Assembly (NCBI GenBank): GCA_041666325.1
Contig: JBAYHC010000004.1
Coordinates: 64,929-128,928 of the forward strand
From: Patescibacteria group bacterium
GTDB lineage: Bacteria > Patescibacteriota > UBA1384 > XYA2-FULL-43-10 > 1-14-0-10-43-13
Reading direction: 5' to 3'
DNA: 64,000 nucleotides
A program made the translations under genes and the position numbers. A model generated the notes under the pieces. It did not search any database, was not told where the DNA came from, and saw only the letters and a program-made list of their open reading frames with translations. This document shows positions 3,327 through 21,706 of this stretch, one piece after another (position 1 is the first letter of the stretch; each line of letters starts with the position of its first letter).

Positions 3327-4127
3327 GTGAAAAAGTCCCTAGCCAGTTCAGCCAAACGCGTTAACTTGAGGCCTATCATTGTCTCGGCAATCGCGCTGAT
3401 GGTTATGTGCCACATCCTTGGAGCAACTGTCGGAACACTATTCTTCTCGATGCTAGTAGTACACGAACAGGGCCATCTTATCATTGCCAGAAAGCTCGGT
3501 TACGAGACGCAAGGCATGGTCGTTATTCCATTCATTGGCGCGATTGGTTTCCTTAAAGAGGAAGTCCAATCCAATAGAGACGAGGCTATCATTGCACTCG
3601 CCGGCCCGCTCGTTGGACTGGTCTTCAACATCATCTTGCTGGTAGCCTGGTTGCTCACGCTGTCGCCGGCGCTGCAGACTGTGGTTTGGATCAATGCGAT
3701 GGTCAATCTTTTTAATCTGCTGCCGATTTTTCCACTTGATGGCGGCAGAGTCGCTCGCGTAATTCTGCGTTCAATGAATATGGATGCGAGCGTTCTCCTA
3801 TCTCTGAGCGTGATTATAGCGGTAATTATGATTATCAAGCATCCGATTTTTCTTTTGCTTGCTCTCATGGCACGGCAAGCACTAAGGCAACACTGTTTTC
3901 TGTCGAGCCTGTCCAATCAAACCACGGCGCTGGCAGAAATCAAAGCCTCGGCCGAGAACGACCATGATCCAGAAGCGATGTCACTGATTCATCAGGTCGA
4001 CTCGTTCCGTGCCAGCCAGTCGGCACCGTGCCTGTCCCAGCGCGAAATAAGCATCACAGTTACGGCATATCTATTGGCATGCATTTGTCTCATCTCAATG
4101 GTGGTTGCCGTAAGCCTTCCCCATTGA
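3327..4127 (+). CDS. M50 family site-2 zinc metalloprotease (RseP/SpoIVFB-like)
   Basis: HEQGH (HExxH) in a predicted TM helix plus the LLPIFPLDGGR motif; multiple hydrophobic segments. Tool start is a non-ATG codon, so the exact start is uncertain. Confidence 0.7.
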   Translation: MKKSLASSAKRVNLRPIIVSAIALMVMCHILGATVGTLFFSMLVVHEQGHLIIARKLGYETQGMVVIPFIGAIGFLKEEVQSNRDEAIIALAGPLVGLVFNIILLVAWLLTLSPALQTVVWINAMVNLFNLLPIFPLDGGRVARVILRSMNMDASVLLSLSVIIAVIMIIKHPIFLLLALMARQALRQHCFLSSLSNQTTALAEIKASAENDHDPEAMSLIHQVDSFRASQSAPCLSQREISITVTAYLLACICLISMVVAVSLPH

Positions 4128-4307
4128 TTTTCCGCTGCACCCAGGTCCCTGCTCTTGGCAGGGCCTTTTTGTATATTGAACACAATCTCTTCCCTGGCAG
4201 TAACATTTTTTGGCAACATATTTTGCAAAGTTTTTAGATTATTGACAGCGGTCTGATTGTTGCTGTAATTTGTAGCTCAGATAATCATTTATTTACAATC
4301 ACTTGTT

Positions 4308-6686
4308 ATGCAAAATATATTCAAAATTGCCTTGATTTGTGGCGGACCCTCGCTTGAACGAGGCATTTCCCTCAATTCCGCCCGATCGGTCATGGATAAC
4401 TTGGAGGACGACAACATTGAAATCGTCCCGTTCTACCTTGACCAACAGAGAAGAGCTTATCGTCTATCCAAGCCGCAGCTTTACTCTAATACGCCCTCTG
4501 ATTTTGATTTTAAGCTTAGCCGGACCGCCAAGCCACTCAGCCAAATCTCCTTCATTCGCAGACTGAGAGAGTGTGATATCGCCTTCCCTGTCATGCACGG
4601 TACATACGGCGAAGACGGCGGGATTCAACGTTTTCTGGAGAAAAACTCGATTCCATTCGTTGGCTCCGACTCGACTTCATGCAAGCAGGTTTTTGATAAA
4701 TTCAACGCCCACCAACTTCTGGGGGATCTTGATTTCAAGGTTATGCCGACCGCGCTGCTCAAGATCTATCATCATGACCACAAGCAAATTATTGATAAAT
4801 TTTTTGAGGCAAACAAGATTAAGCACGCCGTCGTCAAGCCAGCAAGCGGCGGATCAAGTATGGGTGTTTTTCCGGTCAGTAATACGATCGAGGCGCTCGA
4901 GAGGGCCAACTACCTTTTTTCTAAGCGCATTGACACCAGGGTTGTACTAGAGCCGTTCGCCGAGGGTATAGAATTCACTACCATTGTACTCGAAAATCGT
5001 TTTGGCCAACCGGTGGCTATCTTGCCGACAGAGATTGAGGCTGATTATGCGGAGCACCAAATTTTCGATTTCCGCAAAAAATATTTGCCCACTCGCCACG
5101 TCACCTACCACTGCCCACCTCGTTTTCCCAACAAGCTGATCGAACAAATCCAGATTCAGGCAGAACAAATCTTTTCAGCCACCAAGATGTCTGATTTTGC
5201 ACGATTTGACGGCTGGGTATTATCAGACGGTTCGATCTGGTTTTCTGATTTGAATCCAATTAGTGGCATGGAGCAGCACAGCTTTCTCTTCCAGCAGGCC
5301 TCGCGAGTTGGGCTCAGCCACAGAGGTGTCTTGCGCCATATCGTCAAAAGCGCCTGCCGCCGGCAAAGCATTGACTTTCCGGAGCGCCAACCACAAGCCA
5401 AAACTAGGCGTCGCGAGATCAATATCCTTTTCGGAGGCAACACATCAGAACGCCAAGTCTCCCTCTTAAGCGGTACCAATGCTTGGCTCAAACTTTTACA
5501 ATCGAAAAAATACCTTCCCAAACCGTATCTACTCGATCGGGAAAACAATGTTTGGCAGTTACCTTACAGTCTTGTACTCAATCATACAGTCGAAGAGATT
5601 GCTACGAACTGCAGCAAATTCTCAAAGAGTGAAAGGCGCTTGCGCTATCTGGAGAACAGGGTCAGATTTAGGCTTGGTCTCAGCCCGGAATCGAGCGATG
5701 CGCCGCTCTTTGCACCCCAGAAGCTCTCTCTCAAGAATTTTATCAAGAACTCTTCCTTTGTCTTCAACGCCCTGCATGGCGGAGAGGGTGAGAACGGTAT
5801 CCTGCAGCAACAATTCGAAAAACTTGGCACAAAATACAATGGACCAGATGCCACAGTTTCAAATCTATGTGCTGACAAGGCTCTGACACTCGAAGCAGTC
5901 AAAGCGAGCGGCATTCCCGGCATACATACAGCAAACTACATCACAGTTAGCACCGACGAATTGATCCATTTTGATAATTTTGGACTGAGCAACTACTGGA
6001 AAAAAATACTGAAAGATCTCAAGGCTGACTCTGTCGTGATTAAGCCCAAGTCCGATGGCTGTTCCTCTGGTGTTGCCCACCTTTTCAACCACAAAGACCT
6101 GGCGAACTATATTCGAGCAATCAGGGAGAACTGGCCTTCTATCCCCAAGGGCACGCTCCCTCATCAATTGAATGACATTGAGATGCCGACAGAGCAGCCG
6201 CATGACTTTTTGATCGAAGAATATGTTACTACTGACAAAATCTCTGTTCGAAATAATAAGCTCAACTATCAGCGACGTCGGGGCTGGATCGAGGTAACGA
6301 TTGGTGTGATCGAAAAAGACAACGAGATAATTGCGCTCAACCCAAGCCTGACTGTGGCCTCCGGCGAAATACTTTCGGTTGAAGAGAAATTTCAGGGTGG
6401 TACAGGCATAAACATCACGCCTCCCCCAAAAGAAATTATCAGTCAAAAAGCAATTAACCGGACGAAAGAGTTGATTGGCAAATTATCAAATCGTCTTGGT
6501 ATCAAGGGCTATTCTCGAATCGACGCCTTTCTCCAAGTTGACCGCGGCGATCTCATTATCATTGAAATAAACACTCTCCCAGCACTCACGCCCTCGACCG
6601 TTCTCTTCCATCAGGCCCTAGCCGAAGAAAAGCCTCTCTATCCGCGAGAATTACTCGAACAAATCATCTCAAGTGCCGGATACTAA
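4308..6686 (+). CDS. ddl: tandem-duplicated D-alanine--D-alanine ligase (two complete Ddl / ATP-grasp modules in one 792-aa polypeptide)
   Basis: First module: IALICGGPSLERGISLNSA...HGTYGEDGGIQ...VVKPASGGSSMGV. Second module: INILFGGNTSERQVSLLSGTNA...ALHGGEGENGILQ...VIKPKSDGCSSGVAHL...IIIEINTLPALTPSTV. Both carry Ddl N-terminal, central and ATP-grasp signatures. Confidence 0.8.
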   Translation: MQNIFKIALICGGPSLERGISLNSARSVMDNLEDDNIEIVPFYLDQQRRAYRLSKPQLYSNTPSDFDFKLSRTAKPLSQISFIRRLRECDIAFPVMHGTYGEDGGIQRFLEKNSIPFVGSDSTSCKQVFDKFNAHQLLGDLDFKVMPTALLKIYHHDHKQIIDKFFEANKIKHAVVKPASGGSSMGVFPVSNTIEALERANYLFSKRIDTRVVLEPFAEGIEFTTIVLENRFGQPVAILPTEIEADYAEHQIFDFRKKYLPTRHVTYHCPPRFPNKLIEQIQIQAEQIFSATKMSDFARFDGWVLSDGSIWFSDLNPISGMEQHSFLFQQASRVGLSHRGVLRHIVKSACRRQSIDFPERQPQAKTRRREINILFGGNTSERQVSLLSGTNAWLKLLQSKKYLPKPYLLDRENNVWQLPYSLVLNHTVEEIATNCSKFSKSERRLRYLENRVRFRLGLSPESSDAPLFAPQKLSLKNFIKNSSFVFNALHGGEGENGILQQQFEKLGTKYNGPDATVSNLCADKALTLEAVKASGIPGIHTANYITVSTDELIHFDNFGLSNYWKKILKDLKADSVVIKPKSDGCSSGVAHLFNHKDLANYIRAIRENWPSIPKGTLPHQLNDIEMPTEQPHDFLIEEYVTTDKISVRNNKLNYQRRRGWIEVTIGVIEKDNEIIALNPSLTVASGEILSVEEKFQGGTGINITPPPKEIISQKAINRTKELIGKLSNRLGIKGYSRIDAFLQVDRGDLIIIEINTLPALTPSTVLFHQALAEEKPLYPRELLEQIISSAGY

Positions 6687-6727
6687 AAACCAGGGTATAA
6701 GCCCTGGCGATAGAAACGAACCAACCA

Positions 6728-7279
6728 TCATCTGGTAGGTTCAAGCAAATACTGGCAAGTCTCATAGCTCCGGCCACCCTCCTCGTACCTCTCGGGTATG
6801 ATCGGCGAAAGCTCAAAACCAAGACGCTCAAGAATATGGCGGCTGGAACGGTTGGAAGCAAGAACCTCAGCTAAGAGCAATGTGGCAAGGTTCGTCTCAA
6901 AGATATATTTGATTGCCCTCCTGGCCGAAGCTGTTGCCACACCCTGGCCGCGGAAACCCGGCGATACAGCATAATAAAGTCTACCAGTCTTGTGACCCTC
7001 AACTTCATTGACACCAAGCCGATAAGCACCAACCACTCCGGCAAATTGACCGTCAACGCATATCCACCAGAGAATGCCTTTTTCATTCTCCTTGGCCCGA
7101 TGAACTCTCTCTATGTACTCTTCCAGGCTGGGAACCTCATAACCAAGCATGAAATCAGGGTGCAATGATGGATCCCTCAAGAGTAACCAGGCGAGCTCAG
7201 CCTGATCGGGCCGTGGCTGCCGCAAAAAAATCGTTCTCAGGTCATGAGTCAAACCACAGAGCATCTCCGATCCATACAC
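6728..7279 (-). CDS. GNAT family N-acetyltransferase (RimJ/RimL-like)
   Basis: LRxLxxxDxxEL N-terminal pattern and the acetyl-CoA fold block RLGVNEVEGHKTGRLYYAVSPGFRGQGVAT. Confidence 0.7.
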   Translation of the reverse strand: MYGSEMLCGLTHDLRTIFLRQPRPDQAELAWLLLRDPSLHPDFMLGYEVPSLEEYIERVHRAKENEKGILWWICVDGQFAGVVGAYRLGVNEVEGHKTGRLYYAVSPGFRGQGVATASARRAIKYIFETNLATLLLAEVLASNRSSRHILERLGFELSPIIPERYEEGGRSYETCQYLLEPTR

Positions 7280-9546: not shown

Positions 9547-10326
9547 TTACACGCTAGAACACTGCCACAATGAGGCAAAGATCTGCGAGAAATTGCCAGC
9601 CAAATGCTGATTTGTTATGCGAATACCGACAAGACCGCCGCTCTCGAAGGAAAGTATGCTAACCATATCTCCAACAACATAGATGGCAAACTCTTTGATC
9701 ACTGTGCTCTTTGGCAGTAAACGAAATTCCAGCGCATTGCGCGTCTGGTAGTACTTAGCTTTATCTCTCTCGGTTGCTGAATCATTGATCAGCAATTTTG
9801 TCTTGATGCCTCGTTCAACTTTGAAATGCTTGACCAGATCGTGCCACTCCCGATCGAAAACAAATGACCATTCCTTGCTCCAGACAAACTCATCCCGCAG
9901 AATCAGCATCGTCTCGTTCTCCTTGGCCTGACGCAACATCGATAGATAGATTTTTTTAAGCCCTTCCTGCCCCTCAAAAAAAGTAATTTGAGGAATGGAC
10001 AGATCTTGATTGCCGAGTATTTTGAACTGTTCCTTGAGGTTTTTAACTAGTTGAAACTTCTGATCAATGGCGGCTTTCTCTTTCTCTACCATTTGTTCAA
10101 GCACGTTGTAATCTTCGACAATAAATTGTTTTACTTCGTTCTTGTACGTCGTGCTGACAAGACCCTTGGACTGCAAATCACTCAGAGCGGTGTAGACGCT
10201 GCTTCTAGAAAGATTAGTCTTCCTGGCAATGAGCGAGGCACCGGATGGCGACTTCTCAACCAGAGCAGAGTAGACCAGGGCCTCGTTTTTAGTAAACCCA
10301 AGTTTCTCGATCAATTGTTGAATCAT
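9547..10326 (-). CDS. TrmB-family transcriptional regulator (paralog 1 of 3)
   Basis: N-terminal winged HTH LGFTKNEALVYSALVEKSPSGASLIARKTNLSRSSVYTALSDLQSKGLV plus a C-terminal TrmB-like domain. Confidence 0.65.
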   Translation of the reverse strand: MIQQLIEKLGFTKNEALVYSALVEKSPSGASLIARKTNLSRSSVYTALSDLQSKGLVSTTYKNEVKQFIVEDYNVLEQMVEKEKAAIDQKFQLVKNLKEQFKILGNQDLSIPQITFFEGQEGLKKIYLSMLRQAKENETMLILRDEFVWSKEWSFVFDREWHDLVKHFKVERGIKTKLLINDSATERDKAKYYQTRNALEFRLLPKSTVIKEFAIYVVGDMVSILSFESGGLVGIRITNQHLAGNFSQIFASLWQCSSV

Positions 10327-10403
10327 CTGTCTCCTTTTGTGTTGTCGTAATTGTACGGCACATTGTACATATTGTCAATTAGCAGTATTATTGTGACAGA
10401 TTC

Positions 10404-11849
10404 TTGCAAATGCGCAAGGGAGAAATGGAAATGAAAACGACAGCACCGATAATCCAGCAGCACGAACTGACCACCGCCTGCAATAATGCTTGCGGCTTCT
10501 GCTACAACCCCGAACGATGCCAGAAATCATTCGCTCCACGGCAAGAATCGCGCCGGCAAAACTTGGCAGTGGCCGAAATGTCAGTCGCGCATGGTGTCAT
10601 GGCAGTGTGCCCGACCGGAGGAGAACCGCTCTTAGTTGGCAATCACCTCTTGGATGTGATGGCCATCTACAAACAAGGCGGATGTTACATCAGCGTTAAC
10701 ACCAATGCCAGACTGGCAACACCACGAGTGGCCAAACAGTTGGCACAAGCTGGGCTCAAATCGGCCCTCACCTCGCTTCATGGCGTGGGCAAACTGCACG
10801 ATGAGCTCGTTGGGGCCGACGGCGCATTCGAAGAAACATGGCGCGGCATGGTTACCCTGCGCTCTGAGGGCATCGCCGTAACACCCAACGTTGTCGTCAC
10901 AGCCAAGAACATCGGACGCATCGGCATGGTCGGCGCCTATCTGCTCAAGGAGGGATTCAGTTCGATCGCATTCACCCCCTTCCTGCCATCATGGGGGTCA
11001 GACCATCACCAGGATTTCCTTCTCACCGAGGATCAGCATCAAGCGTATTTCCGGCTTCTGAAGGAAATTGGCGAGCAAGGTGCACGCATCGACTCCACGC
11101 TACCGGTTCCGCCCTGCATTCTGCGCCAGATGCTTCCCTCAACATGGCCAGAATATCTGTCATTCCTGTCTCCGCGCGTTTGCATGGCCGGCCGATCATT
11201 CGGCGTTGTCTCGCCGGACGGCCACTTCCGAGCCTGCATCCAAGCACCGTTCTTCGACCAATTCGGCGGCAATGTTCACACGAACTATGCCCGGAGCTGG
11301 TCACGTGCAAACCGGTGGGCAGAACAAAAACTTCTCCCAGATGAGTGCCGGGACTGTGCCGTCCTCTCAGTCTGCGGAGGAGGCTGCCGCACGAGCAGTC
11401 TATGGCGAAACCAAGGAAGCGTTTGTGGCAAGACCATGTACATGGGTCAGCCACTCACGGCAGCCGAGGCTGAACCATTCAAACAGCGTGTGGTTGTCAA
11501 TGTCGCCGCTGCCGTTAGCTACCGCTGGCAGGATCACCTCAAGTTCCGGGATGAGGGCTGGGGCGTCATCGTCTTCAATGCAAAAAACCAGTCATTCACT
11601 ATTCTGGATCAGTCTGCGCGGACGATGCAACGGACGGGCATAGTCGCATTCGACGACGAAAAAACCGGCCGCGTGCTACAAGCAATGGGCGCAGTCGCAC
11701 CCGAGCACATGCTGGCAATACCGGCATGCACCTGCAACACCAAGGCACTTCCCGCCAACCTGCTCCTACCACGACTGGCAGGTGATCTCGATTCACCACA
11801 TGTAGTCTACCGCTTGCGTGCCGACACCGGCGAACGGTACTACTTCTAG
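10404..11849 (+). CDS. radical SAM / SPASM-domain enzyme with C-terminal PqqD-like (RRE) extension; putative peptide-modifying maturase
   Basis: CNNACGFC (CxxxCxxC), GGEPLL, SPASM cluster CRDCAVLSVCGGGC, and C-terminal FRDEGWGVIVFNAKNQSFTILDQSARTM resembling the PqqD fold. The gene is visibly GC-richer than its flanks. Confidence 0.8.
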   Translation: MQMRKGEMEMKTTAPIIQQHELTTACNNACGFCYNPERCQKSFAPRQESRRQNLAVAEMSVAHGVMAVCPTGGEPLLVGNHLLDVMAIYKQGGCYISVNTNARLATPRVAKQLAQAGLKSALTSLHGVGKLHDELVGADGAFEETWRGMVTLRSEGIAVTPNVVVTAKNIGRIGMVGAYLLKEGFSSIAFTPFLPSWGSDHHQDFLLTEDQHQAYFRLLKEIGEQGARIDSTLPVPPCILRQMLPSTWPEYLSFLSPRVCMAGRSFGVVSPDGHFRACIQAPFFDQFGGNVHTNYARSWSRANRWAEQKLLPDECRDCAVLSVCGGGCRTSSLWRNQGSVCGKTMYMGQPLTAAEAEPFKQRVVVNVAAAVSYRWQDHLKFRDEGWGVIVFNAKNQSFTILDQSARTMQRTGIVAFDDEKTGRVLQAMGAVAPEHMLAIPACTCNTKALPANLLLPRLAGDLDSPHVVYRLRADTGERYYF

Positions 11850-11853
11850 CCCC

Positions 11854-11885
11854 GTGGGCGGCCTTCCGCCCACTTTTTTTAATTA
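11854..11885 (+). terminator. rho-independent terminator
   Basis: GTGGGCGG-ccttc-CGCCCAC followed by TTTTTTTTT. Confidence 0.7.
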
Positions 11886-11936
11886 GTCCAATATTGATTA
11901 AATCCTCATCTTTTGGTATACCATTCCCGGAGGTGA

Positions 11937-12239
11937 ATGCTGATGCTTGACCGTCTGACAGCCGAACGTGCCCAACGGGCACAAAAAGCCACTTCATTTA
12001 CAGTTATCACGAGATCGAAGGGCGATTGGAGTAAAGAAGAGATAAGGGTGATTGTAGATGGCCGTCTTACTGAATGGTTTGGCCACCAGAAGCAGAAAGG
12101 AATTATGATTGGACTTGGCACCATTGACGCCAAGATGATAGAGCGGCGTTTGCTTCATCATAATTTCACTCATCAGATTGTCACTGATCGCACAGCTCTC
12201 CCCTTCGAGCCCCAAGATTATCTTTCCCCCAGCGCATAG
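11937..12239 (+). CDS. hypothetical protein (100 aa) downstream of the radical SAM gene
   Basis: GGAGG RBS 3 nt before the ATG; followed by a GCCGG/CCGGC hairpin plus T-run. Confidence 0.4.
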   Translation: MLMLDRLTAERAQRAQKATSFTVITRSKGDWSKEEIRVIVDGRLTEWFGHQKQKGIMIGLGTIDAKMIERRLLHHNFTHQIVTDRTALPFEPQDYLSPSA

Positions 12240-12260
12240 TCGGTTTGACTGTGCAACCGT

Positions 12261-12283
12261 GCCGGTTCACGCCGGCTTTTTTT
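12261..12283 (+). terminator. rho-independent terminator (overlaps the stop of the convergent minus-strand gene)
   Basis: GCCGG-ttcacg-CCGGC followed by TTTTTTT. Confidence 0.5.
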
Positions 12284-13037
12284 GTTCCTTTGATTGTTTG
12301 CAATAATTGATCATGGCTCCGGAAACGTATTGAGCCAAGCCCGGAGCAATCTTCTCGTAATTAGCGGTGAATCGCTCGTCTGCCACGTACATCTTGGCTA
12401 AGCCTTCAAAAATCTCCAGAGAACAATCATAGAAATTGTTCATGTACCTGTGATACTGGCCAGCTAGCTTGCGCACCTCGGCGTCTTCTGGCGGTACGCC
12501 AGCCTTCATCTTTTCGGCTATCTCGTTGACAATTGCACCACCCTCATCTTTGACGCTTTGGAGCTTTTCTTTGCTCCAGGATTTAACCCGAGCAACAGAC
12601 TGATCGACAGTGTCCTTGCCCCAACGTTGTCTTGCTTCCTCCTGATATTCCTGCACCTGCTCTTTGGTCAGTCCCTCGTATAGGTCTTCGTCTTTCATTC
12701 CTTTTTCTCCTGTCATTTTCTTTATCGTATTCTCAATTGTGTTAATCATCCGATCATAGCGATGTCTCTCGGCTTTAAGCGCTTCCCCGTGGCTGCTGAG
12801 GGCTTGAAGCATGTCAAAATTAGTGTCATCCAGTATCTGCTTAATCTCATCAAGTTTAAATTCTAACTCACGAAAAAAGAGGACCTGCTGCAAGCGCAAA
12901 AGATCTTTTTCCTCGTAGTAGCGATATAAATTCTCGCCAATATGCGATGGCTTGAGCAAACCGATCTGGTCATAGTAGTGGAGCGTTCTCACGCTTACGC
13001 CAGCCATCTTGGCTAACTTGTTGATTGTATATTTCAT
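12267..13037 (-). CDS. MerR-family regulator with TipAS-like C-terminal domain (TipAL/Mta-like)
   Basis: MerR HTH TINKLAKMAGVSVRTLHYYDQIGLLKP, a coiled-coil linker and a C-terminal TipAS-like region. Start taken at MKYTINK rather than the upstream in-frame Met. Confidence 0.75.
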   Translation of the reverse strand: MKYTINKLAKMAGVSVRTLHYYDQIGLLKPSHIGENLYRYYEEKDLLRLQQVLFFRELEFKLDEIKQILDDTNFDMLQALSSHGEALKAERHRYDRMINTIENTIKKMTGEKGMKDEDLYEGLTKEQVQEYQEEARQRWGKDTVDQSVARVKSWSKEKLQSVKDEGGAIVNEIAEKMKAGVPPEDAEVRKLAGQYHRYMNNFYDCSLEIFEGLAKMYVADERFTANYEKIAPGLAQYVSGAMINYCKQSKEQKKPA

Positions 13038-13128
13038 CTTAACAAGAGCATGCACTATAACGTTACGTCATAGTCAAGGGGTAAACAAAAAATATCATCT
13101 GATTACAGAGTATCTCTCTTTGCGCCTT

Positions 13129-14607
13129 TTACCCCACATTCATCTCAATCACCGGGGCGGAGCCATCCGGATTGCGCTGGAGCTCAACATCAGCAAAACG
13201 CATTTGAGCAGGATTAAAGTAGAGCATGACTTCGCCGGTCGGGCCGTTTCTGTGCTTGCGGATGAGAACCTCGGTGATACCCTTCTTCTCCGTATCTGGT
13301 TTGTAGTACTCTTCGCGGTAGAGGAACATGACGATATCAGCGTCCTGTTCGATAGAACCGGATTCACGCAGGTCAGAAAGCTGCGGCCGTTTGTCGTCTC
13401 GATGCTCAACCGCACGTGAGAGCTGAGAGAGGGCAATAACGGGCACATTAAGTTCGCGAGCCAAGCCTTTGAGTGATCGAGAAATCTCAGAGATCTCCTG
13501 AACGCGATTTCCATCGCTTCGGGACTTCCCCTCCATCAACTGCAAGTAGTCAATAATAATTAAACCAAGTCCATGCTCCATCTGCAGCCGTCTCGCCTTG
13601 GCTCGAACCTCCATAACATTGGCCCCAGGAGTGTCATCGATAAAGATCGGCGCCTCGGACAAAACACCCATAGCGTAACCAATCTTGGGAAAATCTTCAT
13701 CGGACAGATTGCCCGTACGTAATTTCCAAGAGTCAACGCCAGCTTGGGACGACAAGAGACGATCGACAAGCTGTTCCTTGCTCATTTCCAGAGAGAATAC
13801 ACCAACAGGCACCTTCTCTTCTATGGCTGCATTTTCGGCCAGGTTAAGGGCAAAGGAGGTTTTACCCATAGACGGGCGAGCGGCAAGAATAATAAGGTCA
13901 GATTTTTGAAAACCGGCTGTCTTGGTGTCTAGACCTTTGAAACCGCTGGGGACTCCGCGAATAGCACCCTTGTCCTTGTCGCGATGAATAGTGTCGATAC
14001 GCTCAAATGCTTCGGTTAGGACATCTCTTATGGGTAAGAATTTATCTTTCAAAAATTTTTGGGAGACCGCAAACAAAGACTGTTCTGCCCTATCTAGAGT
14101 TTCAGCGATTTCCCCATCCTCGTCGAAACCTAATCCGGATATATTGTTTCCAGCGCTAATCAATCGCCTCAAGACTGCCTTGTCTCTGACGATCTGTGCA
14201 TAGTGAGTGATGTTGGTCGCGGAGGGAGTGCCATTAACTATTTCGGCCAAATAGCTCGAACCGCCGACTTCCTTGATTTTGCCCTCGTTCTCCAGTGTCT
14301 CTGAGAGAGTGACAATATCAATCGGCATACGCTTTTCGAATAATCGAAGCATGGCTTCAAAGATAATGGCATGGCGATCCTCGTAATAGTCAGGAGGGGT
14401 AACCATATCGGCAACCTTGATAATCGCGTCTTTATCGAGCAGGATCGCACCCAAAACACTCCTCTCTGCTTCCGTGCTCTGGGGCGGGATGCGAACACCA
14501 GAAAAGGCTGCCTTCTTTTGGCTCTCGCCATCTCGATCAAAATTTTTTGCATTACCCCTTGGCATTCGCCCGTCCTTTTCGAATAACGTACTTGGACTCA
14601 ATAACAT
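13129..14607 (-). CDS. dnaB: replicative DNA helicase DnaB
   Basis: N-terminal domain RIPPQSTEAERSVLGAILLD, Walker A ARPSMGKTSFALNLA, and RecA-like core through the C-terminus. Start may be the internal Met at about 14562. Confidence 0.85.
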   Translation of the reverse strand: MLLSPSTLFEKDGRMPRGNAKNFDRDGESQKKAAFSGVRIPPQSTEAERSVLGAILLDKDAIIKVADMVTPPDYYEDRHAIIFEAMLRLFEKRMPIDIVTLSETLENEGKIKEVGGSSYLAEIVNGTPSATNITHYAQIVRDKAVLRRLISAGNNISGLGFDEDGEIAETLDRAEQSLFAVSQKFLKDKFLPIRDVLTEAFERIDTIHRDKDKGAIRGVPSGFKGLDTKTAGFQKSDLIILAARPSMGKTSFALNLAENAAIEEKVPVGVFSLEMSKEQLVDRLLSSQAGVDSWKLRTGNLSDEDFPKIGYAMGVLSEAPIFIDDTPGANVMEVRAKARRLQMEHGLGLIIIDYLQLMEGKSRSDGNRVQEISEISRSLKGLARELNVPVIALSQLSRAVEHRDDKRPQLSDLRESGSIEQDADIVMFLYREEYYKPDTEKKGITEVLIRKHRNGPTGEVMLYFNPAQMRFADVELQRNPDGSAPVIEMNVG

Positions 14608-14739: not shown

Positions 14740-16419
14740 TCAGCTTGCAACTTCAAAAACCTGCTCTGCCACCTTCTGTAACTCATCATCCGCGACGGGC
14801 TTTTTCTCCTTGGGCTTTGGAGTATTAATCTCGCACAGTATCCGGCAACTCCCACCAAGAATTGCGGCCGCTATCTCCTCAAGAATCTGCCGGTTTTTTA
14901 TCTCAGAGATACGGTCCTGGTGAAATTTGAATTTGACACCCAGGGTAAGAAGACCAGCATTTAAAGATAATGGTTGTGCATCACGAAGCAACGCCGCCAA
15001 TGTACCGTTCTCCTTTTTGGTTTGATCAATAATGCTCTGCCAAATATCATCTGTCATTTCTAGCACTGGCGCTGTGGCAGCAGCACTGTCCATGACCTTC
15101 TTCGGGTCATCTGTCGGAATGGATGCCTTGTTTGATTCATTTGGCTCTGTCTTTGGGCTTTCGACAGCATCCTTCAGGCCGGCATCTTTGCTCTCCGGTA
15201 TGAGAGATGATCCGTTTTCTTCTCTGTCCTCTTTCTTCTCGGCTGGTTTCGCCTGAAGTGTATCTGCTGCAGCCTTTGTCGTGCTCGCAACAGGTCGCGC
15301 TTCGGCTCTTGTCTCGCCTGACTTGCTTGCCTCTCCTCCTTCCACCTTCGCTGCAATCTGAACCACAGCCATCTCTAGCGGCAGTGTTGGAATCGATACA
15401 TCTTTAAGCGCCCGACCTTTTTCAATAAATATTTCTAGCGCAGCGACAACCCTCTCAACCGAAACCGTTGCGGCAATCTTCGAGATCTTTTCCAGTCCCT
15501 CTTTTGATTCATTCAGGATTGATTGACCGCCGATAAGATAGTGAAGTACGCGACGCAGGCCTTCGATCACCTGTCGGTTAAACACTGTCATTTCCGCACC
15601 GCTCTCATAGAGACGGTGGACGATTTTTAATCCCTCCTCCGGGAGACCATTAAAAATCGTCCACAGGAAGCTATCTACCTCCTCCCCTCGCACTACACCC
15701 AAAACACTTTCAACATCGGCAACGCCGATATCCTTGGTGCGGCTTGCGACCTGCTCAAAAAGACTAATCGCATCCCTATGACCGCCCTGTGCTGCACGAG
15801 CGATCAAGTCAAGTGCCCCGTCCGTTATTTTGATGGCCTCGCCTTCAGCAACACGCTTAAGATATTTGACAATGTCGCCGTGACTGACTCGCTTAAAGTC
15901 ATACCTCTGGGCCCTTGATAATATTGTGGCCGGAACCTTCTGCACCTCTGTCGTCGCCATAATAAAGACAACATGAGACGGCGGCTCCTCCAGGGTCTTT
16001 AGTAGTGCATTAAACGCACTCTTTGAGAGCATATGAATTTCATCGATGATGTAAACTTTCTTCTTCGACACAGCCGGGGCCAGTCTGGCCTTGTCGATAA
16101 TATCTCTGACATCATCAACGCTAGTGTGTGAAGCGGCATCGATTTCAATAACGTCGAGCGCTTTGCCTGCCGCTATCTCAAGACAGCGATCGCACGTATT
16201 GCACGGCTCCCCCCTACCGTTTTCCTCAATTTTCTGACAACAAAAGGCCTTGGCAAGCAAGCGAGCGGTAGTTGTCTTTCCTGTTCCGCGCGGTCCCGTC
16301 AAAAGATAGGCATGAGAAAGACTGCTGCTCTTGATAGCCTCAAGCAGAGTCAAACTAACATGGTCTTGACCAATAACATCAGAGAAGTTTTGAGGACGGT
16401 ATTTGTGATATAAGGCCAC
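14740..16419 (-). CDS. dnaX: DNA polymerase III subunit gamma/tau
   Basis: MALYHKYRPQNFSDVIGQDHV...LLTGPRGTGKTT, a zinc module CNTCDRC, and a low-complexity tau-like C-terminal region. Confidence 0.9.
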   Translation of the reverse strand: MALYHKYRPQNFSDVIGQDHVSLTLLEAIKSSSLSHAYLLTGPRGTGKTTTARLLAKAFCCQKIEENGRGEPCNTCDRCLEIAAGKALDVIEIDAASHTSVDDVRDIIDKARLAPAVSKKKVYIIDEIHMLSKSAFNALLKTLEEPPSHVVFIMATTEVQKVPATILSRAQRYDFKRVSHGDIVKYLKRVAEGEAIKITDGALDLIARAAQGGHRDAISLFEQVASRTKDIGVADVESVLGVVRGEEVDSFLWTIFNGLPEEGLKIVHRLYESGAEMTVFNRQVIEGLRRVLHYLIGGQSILNESKEGLEKISKIAATVSVERVVAALEIFIEKGRALKDVSIPTLPLEMAVVQIAAKVEGGEASKSGETRAEARPVASTTKAAADTLQAKPAEKKEDREENGSSLIPESKDAGLKDAVESPKTEPNESNKASIPTDDPKKVMDSAAATAPVLEMTDDIWQSIIDQTKKENGTLAALLRDAQPLSLNAGLLTLGVKFKFHQDRISEIKNRQILEEIAAAILGGSCRILCEINTPKPKEKKPVADDELQKVAEQVFEVAS

Positions 16420-16880: not shown

Positions 16881-19292
16881 ATGAATCGGAGCGAGCTAGT
16901 CAGGGCCGTGGCGGACAAGACGGATTTTTCGCTGGTCAAATCAGATAAGTTGGTTACCGCCCTGTGCGACACCATTACAGAAGCTTTAGAACGAGGCGAC
17001 AGAGTCGTCTATTCTAACTTTGGTTCGTTTTACACCGTCCACTATCCCTCAAAGGTCATCATCCATCCCAAGCTTGGCCTGGCTAAAAAAATGATAATGT
17101 TACCAACAAACGTAGCCAAATGGATGCCATCAGAGAATATAAAGAGTTTGGTCAGATCCGGTGAAACCAAGGGTTCGCCAACGCTCCACGCACTAAAATC
17201 AACCAACAAAGAAGTTCCGTCCGGTACCATCGTAGCGAGCAACAACACTACGAGAACGGTTCGCGATGAAACACCAGACTCCGATGAAACCATCGTACCA
17301 ATCCGTCTCTCCAGCCGAAACGCCAAAAACATTGTCGGGGCAGAAATTAACCCCGAACAGAAAAACAAAAATATCAACATCTATGAAGAGTTAATGCAGG
17401 ACGGCAGCAAAGAAGAGACAACTTTTAATGGCGCAATCAGGGTCCCCAAAGACAGAAGCAAGCCATTTTGGAGCAAGCTCTTTAATCGCTCTAAAGACCA
17501 GGAATCATCTACCCCAACAATTGGTCACATAGACAACCAAAACAAAGACACCCAGAAAGTCTCACTGGTTGATTCAGGCGTATTCGATCCCGCCAGCAAA
17601 CCGGAAACTATGGCAGTGCAAGCCACTGCGGAACAAAGCGCTGGAGCCGGTCTTGCCAGTCATCCTCAGGGCGAGACAGTTTCAGTTCAGACAAACAATG
17701 ATCAGACACCCATCGAAAAACCCATTGCGCCATTTCCATCTAATCCGATGGAGATCTCGTATATAGATCTATCCAAAGCGATTGTTCCCAAAGAAATTCT
17801 ACAAAAAATCCCTGAGAAAATTGCTCGCCACTACGGAGTCGTGCCAGTCGAGGAGAACGATAACGAGCTTGTCGTTGCCATGACAGATCCCGAGGACATC
17901 GAGGCGAAAGAGTTAATCAAGAAGTATGCCCAAAAGCCGCTAAAAGTGAGGCTTGGCACACAAGCCGACATCAACCATGTGCTAGACCAATACCAAGGAC
18001 TAGAGTCAGAAGTCCTGGAAGCTATCGAAGAAGTGAACACCGAAGAGGAGGAGAACAACAAAACAGACAACGGCAAGGCAGCAAATCTTACGGTTGCCGA
18101 CGATGCTCCAACAGCAAGGATTGTCAATTCTCTCCTCAGGCGCGCGATTCGAGATAAGGCCTCGGACGTACATATTGAACCACTAGAGAATGAGGTTCAG
18201 GTCCGCTTCAGAATTGATGGCGTTTTACACAAAAAGTTAACTTTACCAAAAGATATTCAGCTGTCAGTCTCCTCCAGGATAAAGATCCTATCCAACATAA
18301 AGATTGACGAGCAACGCTTGCCTCAAGACGGACGATTTAGCATAAGCATCGACAACAGAAGAGTAGATTTTCGTGTCTCCACTCTCCCCACGGCTTACGG
18401 CGAAAAAATTGTCATGAGAATCCTAGATAAGGCCTCTGGAGTTTTAACAGTTGAGCAACTTGGTCTTCAGGGCATGGGCCTCGACGCGCTAACTCAAAAT
18501 CTAGAAAAATCACATGGCATGATCCTGGTGACTGGCCCAACGGGATCAGGTAAAACCACTACTCTTTACGCCCTGATTGATAAGCTTTTTGCCGAGGGCG
18601 TTAATATCGTCACTCTCGAAGACCCGATCGAGTACCAGATGCCAGGCATTAACCAGAGCCAGGTTAACTCCAACATAGACTACACTTTTGCATCAGGATT
18701 GCGCTCAATAGTCAGGCAGGATCCGGATATTATTATGATCGGGGAAATTAGAGACATGGACACAGCCGAGATGGCGGTTCAGGCCGCCCTGACCGGCCAC
18801 GTTGTCCTCTCCACTCTCCACACCAATGATGCTGCCGGCGCAGCACCGCGATTAATAGATATGGGTGTCGAGCCATTTCTTCTTACCTCCTCGGTCAATG
18901 TCATTATCGGACAACGCCTCGCCAGAAAGATATGCGATGAGTGCAAGGAGAAAGATGCGATTCCTGAAGCAGAGATAGAGAGCGTCAAAAAAATTATCGA
19001 CACTATGCCCGAAAAAGAAAAGAAGGAAATGTCCAGCAAGGAGCTTGTTTTCTATAAGGGAAAGGGTTGCAAATCCTGCGACAACACAGGCTATCGTGGC
19101 AGAATCGGCATATTCGAGGTCCTAAGTGTTACCGAGACAGTCAGAGATTTGGTTCTGCGCAAGGTCTCCTCGGGAGAGATTCAGACCAAGGCAATCGAGG
19201 ACGGGATGGTAACAATGATTCAAGACGGAATAATTAAGTCCCTTGAAGGCAAAACCTCGCTGGAAGAGGTTTGGAGAGTAACAAAAGATTAA
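16881..19292 (+). CDS. pilB: type IV pilus assembly ATPase PilB/GspE family with N-terminal HU/IHF-like DNA-binding domain and disordered linker
   Basis: C-terminal Walker A VTGPTGSGKTTTLYA, the GspE N-domain and a tetracysteine motif CDECK...CKSCDNTGYRGR. Residues 1-90 (MNRSELVRAVADKTDFSLVKSDKLVTALCDTITEALERGDRVVYSNFGSFYTV...) align with HU/IHF, followed by a Ser/Thr/Asn/Gln-rich linker of about 190 aa. Confidence 0.85.
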   Translation: MNRSELVRAVADKTDFSLVKSDKLVTALCDTITEALERGDRVVYSNFGSFYTVHYPSKVIIHPKLGLAKKMIMLPTNVAKWMPSENIKSLVRSGETKGSPTLHALKSTNKEVPSGTIVASNNTTRTVRDETPDSDETIVPIRLSSRNAKNIVGAEINPEQKNKNINIYEELMQDGSKEETTFNGAIRVPKDRSKPFWSKLFNRSKDQESSTPTIGHIDNQNKDTQKVSLVDSGVFDPASKPETMAVQATAEQSAGAGLASHPQGETVSVQTNNDQTPIEKPIAPFPSNPMEISYIDLSKAIVPKEILQKIPEKIARHYGVVPVEENDNELVVAMTDPEDIEAKELIKKYAQKPLKVRLGTQADINHVLDQYQGLESEVLEAIEEVNTEEEENNKTDNGKAANLTVADDAPTARIVNSLLRRAIRDKASDVHIEPLENEVQVRFRIDGVLHKKLTLPKDIQLSVSSRIKILSNIKIDEQRLPQDGRFSISIDNRRVDFRVSTLPTAYGEKIVMRILDKASGVLTVEQLGLQGMGLDALTQNLEKSHGMILVTGPTGSGKTTTLYALIDKLFAEGVNIVTLEDPIEYQMPGINQSQVNSNIDYTFASGLRSIVRQDPDIIMIGEIRDMDTAEMAVQAALTGHVVLSTLHTNDAAGAAPRLIDMGVEPFLLTSSVNVIIGQRLARKICDECKEKDAIPEAEIESVKKIIDTMPEKEKKEMSSKELVFYKGKGCKSCDNTGYRGRIGIFEVLSVTETVRDLVLRKVSSGEIQTKAIEDGMVTMIQDGIIKSLEGKTSLEEVWRVTKD

Positions 19293-19437
19293 TAAAGGCA
19301 AAAGTTAGCAAGGCACCAGGCGAAAAAGATGCGGTCAAGAAAGAATGTGGTTCTCTTACGCCTTACGCCTTTCACACTTACGCCCGCCTGCATCGTCTGG
19401 AGCGAAGCGACTGCGGGCAGGCCTTACACCATTTATC
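19290..19437 (+). repeat. intergenic repeat element copy A (AGGCAAAAGTTAGCAAG ... hairpin CGCCCGCCTGCATCGYCTGGAGCGAAGCGACTGCGGGCAGGC ... ACACC) immediately upstream of pilC
   Basis: Near-identical 42-nt hairpin core also at 20697-20739 and 37956-37998; flanking modules are also shared. Confidence 0.6.
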
Positions 19438-20628
19438 ATGCAATACACCTACAGCGCAAAAGATGACAAGGGAAATATTATAAAAGGCACGCTAGAAGCA
19501 GCGTCTGAAATCTCGGCTGCGAACGCTCTCCGCGCCAAGGCCCTTTTCCTGCTGGACCTCAAGACCAAAAAATCCCCAAGAGCGATTTGGCAACGCCGTG
19601 TTCCGCTCAAGGAGAGAATTATCTTTACTCAGCAATTGGAGATTATGGTCAGATCAGGCTTACCGCTCGTTGATGCGATCACATCTCTCCAGGAAGAAAC
19701 CGAAAACAAAAGATTTGCCTCCGAACTCTCGCAAGTTGTGGCTAGTGTGGAAACGGGATCACTTCTTTCGGACGCACTGGCCAAATTCCCCAAAACTTTC
19801 AGCGAAGTATACGTCAACCTGGTACGATCCGGAGAGAAGACGGGCCAACTAGACAAAGTCCTGCAACGTCTGTCTGGTCAACTTCAGAAAGACTTTGAGG
19901 TAAATAGAAAGGTGAAGGGCGCCCTATCCTACCCACTGTTTATTCTCACTGCGCTGATTGGCGTGATGGTTTTGATTCTAAACGCGATTATCCCGCAACT
20001 GCAACAAATATTTGACGATGTTGGTGCCGAGCTTCCCCTTTCTACCCGCATCGTGATTGGGGCTAGTAAATTTACACGAAGCTATGGCGTTTTTACTCTG
20101 GCGTTTATCATTGTGGCAATTGTCTTAATATCCCGTTGGCTCAAAACAGCCCAAGGCAAGAGATTCTTTGATCGTTTTTTACTGAAAATACCGGTTATCG
20201 GACTCTTGCTCAGAAAGTCGTACCTGGCTCGCTTGACTCGTACCTTTGCTGCTTTATCAAACGCCGGCCTACCAGTGCTTGAGGCGCTGCGGGTGTCGAG
20301 CAATGTAATCGGAAACTCCGTCTACGAAAGAGAGGTTGTGAAGGTTGCCGACAGAGTAAAAAATGGGCAAACAATCTCGAAGGCGTTCGGAGAGAGCCCG
20401 CTATTTCCGGCAATGATTATGCAGCTAGCCTCTGTTGGCGAAAAGTCCGGCAACATCGGAGAGGTTTTTGACAGCTTGGCCGACTTCTTCGACAGGGATG
20501 TCGACTCCATAACAACAAATTTATCAACAATGCTTGAACCACTGTTAGTCATTATTCTGGGTGTTGGGATAGCAGCCATCATCATATCTGTTCTGCAGCC
20601 AATCTATGGATTAGTAAATACGATGTAG
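19438..20628 (+). CDS. pilC: type IV pilus inner-membrane platform protein PilC (GspF family)
   Basis: Two GspF repeats and three TM segments. Start placed at MQYTYSAKD because the upstream tool start would translate through the repeat element. Confidence 0.8.
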   Translation: MQYTYSAKDDKGNIIKGTLEAASEISAANALRAKALFLLDLKTKKSPRAIWQRRVPLKERIIFTQQLEIMVRSGLPLVDAITSLQEETENKRFASELSQVVASVETGSLLSDALAKFPKTFSEVYVNLVRSGEKTGQLDKVLQRLSGQLQKDFEVNRKVKGALSYPLFILTALIGVMVLILNAIIPQLQQIFDDVGAELPLSTRIVIGASKFTRSYGVFTLAFIIVAIVLISRWLKTAQGKRFFDRFLLKIPVIGLLLRKSYLARLTRTFAALSNAGLPVLEALRVSSNVIGNSVYEREVVKVADRVKNGQTISKAFGESPLFPAMIMQLASVGEKSGNIGEVFDSLADFFDRDVDSITTNLSTMLEPLLVIILGVGIAAIIISVLQPIYGLVNTM

Positions 20629-20764: not shown

Positions 20765-21706
20765 ATGTTTCTTCCCTTCTCTGAAAATTCAATTGTGGGT
20801 CTTGATATCGGCTTTGAAACGCTGAAGCTTGTCGAGCTCAACAAGGGCGGCGGCAAAGTTTCTCTGCGCGGCTTAAGCAATATTTCTCTACCAGAGCGCA
20901 TACTGGAGCGAGACCACTTCAAGGACAAAAAGGCCACTGCGCAGCTAATTGCAAAAGCTTGCGAGGAGGCAAAACCAGCCTCGATCAAGGCCAGAAAAAT
21001 TGTCTCTGCACTGCCAGAAACGTTTGTCTTCTCCAAGACAATTCAACTACCAAAGATGGAGGAAGGTGAATACGAAAAAGCTGTACCGATGGAAGCAGCT
21101 CAGTTCTTGCCCATACCTATCGAACACGTCTATCTTGACTTCGAGGTGCTCATCACCAGACCAGACCAACCGCTTGCAGACATCCTTATCGTCGCGTCAC
21201 CAAAACGCTTAGTCGAAGAGTACGTCGAGGTTGCCCAGTTGGCAGGATTTGAATTAACTGCCCTTGAACCAAAAGCTCTGGCAGTCGGCAGAGCCCTTTT
21301 GCCGCATGATTTCACTGAAGGAGTACTGATAGCCGAGATTGGGACGGAAATCACCAGAATATCGATTTGGGACGGAAATAAGCTTAGGCTGACAACGACT
21401 GTCAGCGCTGGCAACAACCAGATAGCCGAGAGCACCAAAGCGGGTGATTTTCACCATTTGCTTCCGATTATTGACGAGGTAGTAACCGCCATACGCTATC
21501 ATCAAAATCGCGATTATCAACCAAAACCAATTAGTAAAATTTTGCTATGCGGATCAGGCGCCTGCATTCCAGGCATAGATAAAATATTTGAAAACGAGAG
21601 TAAAATTAAGGTTGAGATTGCTAGGCCACAACTTCACGGCGAAGACGAGCTTGGGCCAGAATACACAACAGCATTCGGCCTGGCGCTAAGAGGAGAATAT
21701 GAATAA
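20765..21706 (+). CDS. pilM: type IV pilus assembly protein PilM (actin-like ATPase fold)
   Basis: IVGLDIGFETLKLVEL N-terminal actin-like start and LLCGSGACIPGIDK C-terminal block. Confidence 0.8.
   Translation: MFLPFSENSIVGLDIGFETLKLVELNKGGGKVSLRGLSNISLPERILERDHFKDKKATAQLIAKACEEAKPASIKARKIVSALPETFVFSKTIQLPKMEEGEYEKAVPMEAAQFLPIPIEHVYLDFEVLITRPDQPLADILIVASPKRLVEEYVEVAQLAGFELTALEPKALAVGRALLPHDFTEGVLIAEIGTEITRISIWDGNKLRLTTTVSAGNNQIAESTKAGDFHHLLPIIDEVVTAIRYHQNRDYQPKPISKILLCGSGACIPGIDKIFENESKIKVEIARPQLHGEDELGPEYTTAFGLALRGEYE

Follow-up and report, generated by a model that had tools for sequence, protein, structure and literature searches.

Does a bacterial polypeptide with two Ddl (D-alanine–D-alanine ligase) modules in tandem represent a genuine fusion, and, if so, do both of its putative active sites work and what do they make? 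The case in point is a gene for a 792-residue protein on the + strand of a 64-kb window (the whole stretch of DNA analyzed) from a Patescibacteria group bacterium (NCBI GenBank assembly GCA_041666325.1, contig JBAYHC010000004.1, positions 64,929 to 128,928 of the forward strand). Unless another locus is named, coordinates are positions within this window. We find that the protein is a genuine, uninterrupted fusion of two Ddl units and, by homology across both modules, assign it to the tandem DDL family of plants as a bacterial (Patescibacteria) member. Its role is very probably to provide D-Ala-D-Ala for building the cell wall. The reading we prefer, and consider reasonably probable, is that of a D-Ala-D-Ala ligase for peptidoglycan in the plant-type tandem form, a covalent pseudo-heterodimer in which both sites would be competent and non-redundant.

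An uninterrupted fusion of two Ddl modules

The open reading frame (ORF) begins with ATG and continues for 792 residues with zero internal stops. The Pfam models for the N-terminal (Dala_Dala_lig_N, PF01820; 148.5 bits, cutoff 34.6) and C-terminal (Dala_Dala_lig_C, PF07478; 140.1 bits, cutoff 24) domains of Ddl each match the protein twice, and the general D-Ala-D-Ala ligase model TIGR01205 of NCBIfam reaches 307.7 bits, above its cutoff of 245.65; membership in the Ddl family is indicated by both domain models and TIGR01205 passing their curated cutoffs. The first-pass annotation, made from the letters of the DNA, had described two complete Ddl modules in one polypeptide, and this description holds: the N- and C-terminal domains both occur twice in one open frame, and the motifs that it quoted are all present in the translation. 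It had also singled out the junction as the place where two adjacent ddl genes might have been misjoined. The junction (aa ~353-368) is in frame and free of stops, and the identical 792-residue protein is encoded in two independent assemblies, on a contig of 193 kb in ENA ERZ27249449 and one of 9.9 kb in Logan SRR18595301. An assembly or annotation artifact is ruled out by the open frame and the two assemblies, and equally by the recurrence of the same fused length in hundreds of proteins, in plants and in the complete Dactylosporangium genome NZ_CP192032.1. We found no point that speaks for such an artifact, the linker being simply the least conserved part of the protein, and regard its probability as practically negligible.

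The two modules are unequal partners. In phmmer searches of the PDB, module 1 (aa 1-355) retrieves VanG first (4fu0, 1e-29), followed by many Ddl entries, and module 2 retrieves VanA first (1e4e, 1.7e-15), again followed by Ddl entries; the lead of VanA is marginal, with a DdlA at 5.7e-14. The best E-values thereby bear out the earlier remark on the greater divergence of the second module. An hhalign comparison aligns the modules with each other end to end (probability 100%, E 4.7e-53) at 21% identity and reveals three extra segments in module 2, one in its N-terminal and two in its central domain (Table 2). The first of the central insertions, 2a, has a consensus, IPxxTFxxQxxxIEMP, that is conserved across the tandem Ddl family. 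A recent internal duplication is unsupported, as in profile comparison the modules share 21% identity with each other against 26% with canonical Ddl.

Asymmetric active sites

As the reference for active-site residues we used Escherichia coli DdlB, its sequence verified to be identical to that of PDB 2dln/1iov, and mapped its residues onto both modules by hidden Markov model (HMM) alignment and hhalign (Table 1). The residues for ATP and Mg2+ binding and phosphoryl transfer are present in both modules, with the conservative replacement of Glu270 by Asp314 in module 1 as the sole change; the concern that one half might be without its catalytic residues is not borne out, the alignment to DdlB finding the ATP-grasp set in both. 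The Glu15-Ser150-Tyr216 triad of DdlB is complete in module 1 (E17/S183/Y259), and in module 2 it reads E381/C585/F695. The specificity residues of the omega-loop, which the first-pass annotation had marked for inspection, are Lys-Tyr (K258-Y259) in module 1 and Lys-Phe (K694-F695) in module 2. As aligned, module 1 has a shortened metal ligand, and of the Glu-Ser-Tyr network module 2 retains the Glu, with Ser and Tyr lost.

Table 1. Equivalents of DdlB active-site residues in the two modules
DdlB	Module 1	Module 2
E15	E17	E381
H63	H97	H490
K97	K131	K524
K144	K177	K579
S150	S183	C585
S151	S184	S586
E180	E215	E637
K215	K258	K694
Y216	Y259	F695
R255	R299	R737
D257	D301	D739
E270	D314	E753
N272	N316	N755
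S281	S325	T764
L282	F326	V765

These differences are fixed features of the family. In an unbiased alignment of 47 sequences, collected only by HMMER or word-index searches and spanning the candidate phyla radiation (CPR), other bacteria, algae and a plant, each tabulated position is either invariant or conserved to 90% or more, the unusual D314, C585, F695 and T764 included. The signature of module 2 (EEKFQGGTG, Cys585, Phe695) and the Asp314 of module 1 are invariant or nearly so in this alignment, plant and algal members included. A clade table of 78 sequences gives the same conservation of the tabulated positions, with that of Phe695 being partly by construction, as the patterns EKFQGGTG and HGGxGE[DN]G had served to collect the loci in this set. 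The omega-loop of module 2 holds the most conserved motif of the family: L689, E693, K694, F695, Q696, G698, G700 and N702 remain unchanged all the way from CPR to plants, and one residue of the motif differs in the Coffea protein discussed next.

Kinship with plant DDL

Some matches of module 2 are 880-990 residues long, and one of these is a protein of Coffea eugenioides (P0190, XP_027176337.1; 956 aa). Its BLASTP alignment with the 792-residue protein (606 bits, 41% identity over 881 columns) covers both modules co-linearly, and Pfam recovers the same double Ddl architecture. Two Ddl modules per chain are likewise the arrangement in the plastid DDLs of plants and algae, such as Arabidopsis At-DDL and Physcomitrium PpDDL, and from its architecture and the literature we take the Coffea protein to be the At-DDL orthologue. 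It shares with the bacterial protein the changes specific to each module, namely Asp for Glu270 in module 1 and Cys/Phe in module 2, together with the motifs YSNTPxDFDFKL, ISGMEQxSFLFQQAS, WxLPYSLVLxHTxEE, EEKFQGGTGINxTPPP and TPSTVLxHQALAEExPLYP. The bacterial protein differs in lacking an N-terminal extension of ~80 residues, presumably a transit peptide, and some plant-specific loop insertions. The assignment to the plant-type tandem DDL family follows from the full-length homology over both modules and the presence of both module signatures.

Plant DDL has been described as two fused DDL units present throughout the plant lineage (PMC9954125). In moss, knockout of Ddl is reported to abolish the dimerization of D-Ala and to give rise to macrochloroplasts (PMC9954125; PMC7432710). 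The pentapeptide building blocks that accumulate in moss are the ordinary ones found in typical Gram-negative bacteria (PMC9434261). Angiosperms retain DDL, most of them without the full Mur pathway; a role in D-amino-acid metabolism has been suggested, and the function is debated (PMC12681378; PMC7432710). A mostly non-cyanobacterial origin has been reported for the plant peptidoglycan enzymes (PMC9434261 among the sources). In our neighbor-joining tree, the plant/algal clade is sister to a large mixed bacterial clade with 59-61% bootstrap. The tandem fusion is very probably of bacterial origin and had already formed when plants acquired it; with support of just 59-61% for the plant/algal placement, we make no claim of an origin of plant DDL within CPR.

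Phyletic spread of the bacterial tandem form

In a search of a collection of 5.8 billion proteins, the best 120 matches are 773-827 residues long and cover 98-100% of the query at 55-65% identity. Those with a named source are mostly from metagenome-assembled genomes (MAGs) of Patescibacteria/CPR (Lipton-, Taylor-, Kaiser-, Sungii-, Peregrini- and Abawacabacteria); some bear just the label 'bacterium', one is labeled Parachlamydiales, and all go under 'hypothetical protein' or 'D-alanine--D-alanine ligase'. Module 2 alone, used as the query of an exhaustive HMMER search, retrieves 280 clusters (50% identity) at E <=1e-30, the best matches being mostly proteins of about 780-830 residues with module 2 in the C-terminal half. 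We looked up five shorter matches of 420-480 residues as candidates for a stand-alone module 2 and rejected them as fragments: the contigs that hold them measure 1.3-4.4 kb, one match carries the annotation 'partial', and for two the cluster also has members of ~800 residues. In these searches, module 2 essentially never turns up alone.

Among genomes taken at one per GTDB species there are at least 567 confirmed relatives, and about 70 of the best 80 of these loci have the tandem architecture, at a length of about 785-810 residues. The form of ~790 residues is present in numerous CPR/Patescibacteria, and no fewer than nine further bacterial phyla have it too. Its hosts include Chlamydiia/Parachlamydiaceae, Bdellovibrionota and Micavibrio, Alpha- and Gammaproteobacteria MAGs, the verrucomicrobial 'Moanabacter', Clostridia, Planctomycetota, Holophagae, Dependentiae/Babeliales and Actinomycetes, the last with the complete genome of a cultured isolate, Dactylosporangium sp. 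CS-033363. Many of these hosts live as obligate symbionts, inside cells or by predation (CPR, Chlamydiia, Dependentiae/Babeliales, Bdellovibrionota and Micavibrio); plastids have the tandem form as well, as do large-genome Actinomycetes and Clostridia.

Two further observations concern the range of forms. In Candidatus Moanabacter (Verrucomicrobiota; locus L026, 9339-10367), a second Ddl-like ATP-grasp gene of 342 codons lies 1 kb downstream of the tandem gene and matches the C-terminal Ddl domain only, weakly (E 1e-11); hence, tandem and single Ddl-like genes can coexist. Family members far longer than 800 residues, such as L077 4942-8475, P0206 (1638 aa), P0218 (1876 aa), P0221 (1580 aa) and P0176 (1262 aa), suggest extra fused domains or merged gene models.

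Predicted structure

An AlphaFold2 model computed with 84 homologues has a mean predicted local distance difference test (pLDDT) score of 88.5 and a predicted template modeling score (pTM) of 0.87. The omega-loops alone are of low confidence (mean pLDDT 54 over 251-260 and below 50 over 686-697), and residues 361-370 of the linker reach 75 in an otherwise confident model. The low values at the loops are consistent with mobile lids, and the model as a whole is consistent with a defined arrangement of the two modules. A long helix is predicted for residues 428-456, leading into insertion 1, and extra β-strands are predicted at 644-648 and 651-655 in the region of insertion 2b. The best 50 PDB matches of the model in Foldseek are single-module ligases of the Ddl family, including VanA, VanG and LmDdl2, with template modeling (TM) scores of 0.78-0.88 relative to the target and at most 0.40 relative to the query; no tandem Ddl structure was found in the PDB copy searched.

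Gene neighborhoods

In the window, the tandem ddl stands alone between the gene for an M50 site-2-protease-like peptidase and the convergent gene for a GNAT acetyltransferase (Table 2). Each of these two families is an immediate neighbor of the tandem gene in 3 of the about 65 related loci that we sampled. The hairpin and T-run after the M50 gene suggest that ddl forms its own transcription unit, with promoter and terminator scans of the window giving no more hits than shuffled sequence. The 64-kb window contains no second Ddl-like ORF, neither vanH nor vanX, and no mur genes except for a WecA/MraY-family transferase. The first-pass statement that no mur genes are adjacent is therefore right for this window and fails for the family, in which alr and murF adjoin the tandem ddl elsewhere.

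Table 2. Features of the tandem ddl gene, its surroundings and the MurF-Alr fusion genes of related loci
Feature	Position	Strand	Details and basis
Complete tandem ddl gene	4308..6686	+	792 codons plus stop; ORF list, translation, Pfam
Module 1, canonical-type Ddl	4308..5372	+	aa 1-355; PDB phmmer, HMM alignment to DdlB, invariant columns
Module 1 omega-loop	5055..5093	+	aa 250-262; holds K258-Y259, aligned to DdlB K215-Y216
Inter-module linker	5373..5408	+	aa 356-367; least conserved stretch, always in frame; conservation profile
Module 2, divergent Ddl	5409..6683	+	aa 368-792; PDB phmmer, hhalign to module 1, invariant columns
Module 2 insertion 1, N-terminal domain	5631..5717	+	aa ~442-470; gap opposite module 1 in hhalign
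Module 2 insertion 2a, central domain	6132..6191	+	aa ~609-628, WPSIPKGTLPHQLNDIEMPT; 20-residue hhalign gap
Module 2 insertion 2b, central domain	6234..6287	+	aa ~643-660; 18-residue hhalign gap
Module 2 omega-loop motif	6372..6428	+	aa 689-707, LSVEEKFQGGTGINITPPP; most conserved motif of the family
M50 site-2-protease-like peptidase gene	3327-4127	+	upstream flank of tandem ddl
Terminator-like hairpin and T-run	4147..4173	+	after M50 gene; consensus scan, sequence read directly
Terminator-like hairpin	6689..6708	-	between ddl stop and convergent GNAT gene; consensus scan only
GNAT acetyltransferase gene	6728-7279	-	convergent, downstream flank of tandem ddl
TrmB-family regulator	9547-10326	-	
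Radical-SAM protein	10404-11849	+	
MerR/TipAS-type regulator	12267-13055	-	
dnaB	13129-14607		replication
dnaX	14740-16419		replication
Type IV pilus/T2SS ATPase (T2SSE + MshEN)	16881-19292	+	803 aa
PilC-like gene	19345-20628		
PilM-like gene	20765-21706		
TrmB-family regulator	41951-42688	+	
Pol III alpha subunit	53131-56700		replication
MurF-Alr fusion gene	L039 2775-5276		
MurF-Alr fusion gene	L041 124-2301		
MurF-Alr fusion gene	L055 3251-5749		
MurF-Alr fusion gene	L077 8488-11043		

Across the sampled loci, a single neighbor group dominates in a BLAST clustering of genes within four positions; it is present in 17 loci and lies immediately downstream on the same strand in 11 of the 17. 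In CPR loci this group is alanine racemase (TIGR00492, 322 bits, above cutoff), in loci of Bdellovibrionales and Alphaproteobacteria it is MurF (TIGR01143, 333 and 328 bits, above cutoff), and in Actinomycetes and Holophagae it consists of MurF-Alr fusions adjoining the tandem ddl. A Pfam census of the 118 immediate neighbors agrees in its ranking, with Ala_racemase 10 times, Mur_ligase 7 times and all others at most 4 times. The fusions of MurF to alanine racemase, 725-851 residues long, adjoin the tandem gene in Actinomycetes, Acidimicrobiia and Holophagae, and the two genes together look like a cassette for a 'D-Ala branch' (Alr/Ddl/MurF); the score with the PRK11930 fusion model of NCBIfam is 553.7, below its cutoff of 804.

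In two CPR contigs of approximately 1 Mb (L003 and L004), the tandem ddl is directly preceded by a gene for an M15 D-Ala-D-Ala dipeptidase-like protein and directly followed by one for a POTRA (FtsQ-type) protein, with mreB-mreC-PBP2 a few genes upstream. The slot before ftsQ is the position of canonical ddl. An FtsZ gene lies two genes upstream of the tandem ddl in a locus of Bdellovibrionota (L051). In a Bdellovibrionales locus (L036), the gene order is tandem Ddl, MurF, M15 dipeptidase-like, alpha/beta hydrolase and a further MurF-like Mur ligase that has a hydrophobic extension at its N terminus (features at 9907-10716 and 11490-13091), which puts the M15 D-Ala-D-Ala dipeptidase-like gene two genes downstream of the tandem ddl.

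The remainder of the window contains genes for replication, for a radical-SAM protein and a MerR/TipAS-type regulator near the tandem ddl, and for two TrmB-family regulators. It also encodes a type IV pilus/type II secretion system (T2SS) ATPase whose ORF starts with an HU-like Bac_DNA_binding domain (residues 1-91, E 1.3e-14) and is followed by PilC-like and PilM-like genes; this HU-PilB fusion looks unusual.

Comparison with other ligases

Both modules have the three-domain ATP-grasp fold of canonical Ddl (E. coli DdlB 2dln; DdlA-type 3i12 and 3tqt). Canonical enzymes have one module per chain, whereas the window protein has two; its module 1 shares their substrate-binding and catalytic residues, including the Glu-Ser-Tyr triad, but has Asp for Glu270, and its module 2 departs from them by the Cys/Phe/Thr/Val changes and the three insertions. 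In the Ddl of lactic acid bacteria, an active-site Phe versus Tyr decides between depsipeptide (D-Ala-D-lactate, D-Ala-D-Lac) and dipeptide activity (PMC5996685). The Phe of such a depsipeptide enzyme (LmDdl2, 1ehi) recurs as F695 in module 2, though this rule comes from a different Ddl subfamily; module 2 further differs from the Phe-type and VanA ligases in the extra Cys for Ser150, and no vanH/vanX operon accompanies it here. The MurC-Ddl fusion of Chlamydiaceae (NF011171) is also a Ddl-containing fusion in the pathway of peptidoglycan precursors, with the difference that the partner there is a Mur ligase and in the window protein a second Ddl. The 792-residue protein is not a MurC-Ddl, as NF011171 gives 148.1 bits against a cutoff of 1015 and Pfam finds no Mur ligase domain in it. 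For two ATP-grasp modules in one chain, a precedent by analogy only is CarB, the large subunit of carbamoyl-phosphate synthetase, whose modules catalyze different steps. CarB, which arose by internal duplication (PMC11915815), belongs to a different ATP-grasp family, and for a two-step reaction in the tandem Ddl there is no evidence.

Proposed function and its alternatives

Ddl enzymes are dimers, and two Ddl-like ATP-grasp modules joined by a linker of ~12 residues would amount to a covalent version of the usual dimer. Module 1, with its canonical pocket (Glu17/Ser183/Tyr259, His97, Lys258, Arg299 and Ser325), is the likely site of D-Ala-D-Ala formation, and the dipeptide would then be added by MurF to the UDP-N-acetylmuramic acid (UDP-MurNAc)-tripeptide precursor of peptidoglycan. 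Module 2 is most likely also catalytic and not redundant with module 1, because it combines the full ATP/Mg2+/phosphoryl-transfer set with a fixed but different pocket (Glu381/Cys585/Phe695, with Thr764 and Val765 at the D-Ala2 site) and three insertions. A more tentative extension, possible in our view, is that the Tyr-type site makes D-Ala-D-Ala and the Cys/Phe-type site carries out a different ATP-dependent ligation, the two being non-redundant and kept together in CPR, chlamydiae, actinomycetes and plastids. The Cys/Phe-type site may in that case yield a depsipeptide or another D-Ala-X product, or perform a further step in D-Ala handling.

Several points weigh against the reading of a peptidoglycan ligase with two working sites. 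Every member has Asp at the Mg-binding position of Glu270 in module 1, so that activity is not guaranteed there, and module 2 keeps only one residue of the Glu15-Ser150-Tyr216 network. The predicted geometry of the pseudo-dimer has the pTM as its sole basis, and in the literature we found no enzyme assay for any bacterial member or for the separate modules of the plant enzyme. In the present window the tandem ddl has no alr or mur neighbor; the in vivo requirement of the family for peptidoglycan is known for moss only, with indirect support from the alr and murF neighbors elsewhere. Large-genome hosts such as Dactylosporangium (11 Mb) probably, as we assume, also possess a canonical ddl, and in that case the housekeeping role would not simply fall to the tandem form in every host.

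A specific form of divided labor, in which the Tyr-type module 1 makes D-Ala-D-Ala and the Phe-type module 2 makes D-Ala-D-lactate or D-Ala-D-Ser, would give an alternative and possibly glycopeptide-insensitive precursor terminus. The family-wide Phe695 for Tyr216 and Cys585 for Ser150 in module 2, the Phe/Tyr switch of lactic acid bacteria (PMC5996685), and the strict retention of two differently tuned sites, suggestive of non-redundant chemistry, fit this idea, as do VanX/DdpX-like M15 dipeptidase genes near the tandem gene in L003, L004 and L036, these being 3 loci only. We nevertheless consider it rather unlikely. The NCBIfam models for VanA, VanB, VanC, VanG and other D-Ala-D-Lac or D-Ala-D-Ser ligases score 114-211 bits against cutoffs of 495-775 (VanA 122.5 vs 775, VanB 114.3 vs 750, generic D_ala_D_lac 164.1 vs 550, VanG 210.8 vs 495, D_ala_D_ser 193.9 vs 520, VanC 163.2 vs 650), and no cutoff of the VanA/VanB/VanD-type or VanC/VanG-type models is reached. 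Neither a VanH-like D-lactate dehydrogenase nor a dedicated serine racemase recurs among the neighbors in the about 65 loci, the Tyr/Phe rule is carried over from another subfamily by an alignment within a low-confidence loop, and moss, with a homologous enzyme, accumulates ordinary pentapeptide precursors (PMC9434261).

That one module is instead a non-catalytic pseudo-enzyme, serving as dimer partner, scaffold or allosteric nucleotide sensor, appears improbable. A fused partner could be purely structural in an enzyme that is dimeric anyway, and each module has its own unusual change, Asp for Glu270 in the first and Cys/Phe for Ser150/Tyr216 in the second. Pseudo-enzymes normally lose catalytic residues, whereas both modules, from CPR to plants, keep the equivalents of K97, K144, E180, K215, R255, D257, E/D270 and N272, as well as those of the D-Ala1-binding Glu15 and His63, and no motif in the whole protein is better conserved than the omega-loop of module 2. 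The inactive scaffold envisaged by the first-pass annotation is accordingly disfavored by the conservation of the ATP-, Mg- and phosphoryl-transfer residues in both modules of the 47 sequences, plant and algal ones included. A role outside peptidoglycan, with a D-amino-acid dipeptide made for D-Ala detoxification or storage, for another envelope polymer or for a secondary metabolite, is highly improbable: it would suit the M50 peptidase and GNAT acetyltransferase in place of mur genes in the window, the retention of DDL by angiosperms, most of which lack the full Mur pathway (PMC12681378; PMC7432710), and actinomycete loci that resemble an accessory cassette of MurF-Alr and tandem Ddl. Set against it are the recurrent partners Alr and MurF, the latter specific for peptidoglycan precursors, the POTRA (FtsQ-type) gene directly after or ftsZ near the tandem gene in some genomes, and the phenotype of the moss knockout, which is one of peptidoglycan and plastid division (PMC9954125). 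Among these explanations, we hold to the peptidoglycan ligase with two non-redundant sites.

Implications

The tandem architecture is already known from plant DDL (PMC9954125), where it is regarded as a trait of the plant lineage. Yet this two-module enzyme, its active sites bearing the same asymmetric substitutions, is common in bacteria and especially so in the small-genome CPR, chlamydial, Dependentiae and predatory lineages. This bacterial form is abundant yet essentially unremarked and uncharacterized; we found no description of a CPR or other bacterial tandem Ddl in the literature, the study of Sato & Takano 2017 lying outside that scope. The EEKFQGGTG motif could let annotation pipelines recognize the family. 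Its bacterial members offer a tractable system for the role of the second active site, which bears on plastid peptidoglycan, on susceptibility to D-cycloserine and glycopeptides and on cell-wall synthesis in uncultured CPR. Should the Cys/Phe-type site indeed perform a different ligation, bacterial and plant 'DDL' would be bifunctional enzymes whose second activity has been overlooked. The question for the family as a whole is thus why two differently tuned Ddl sites stay fused from CPR bacteria to chloroplasts.

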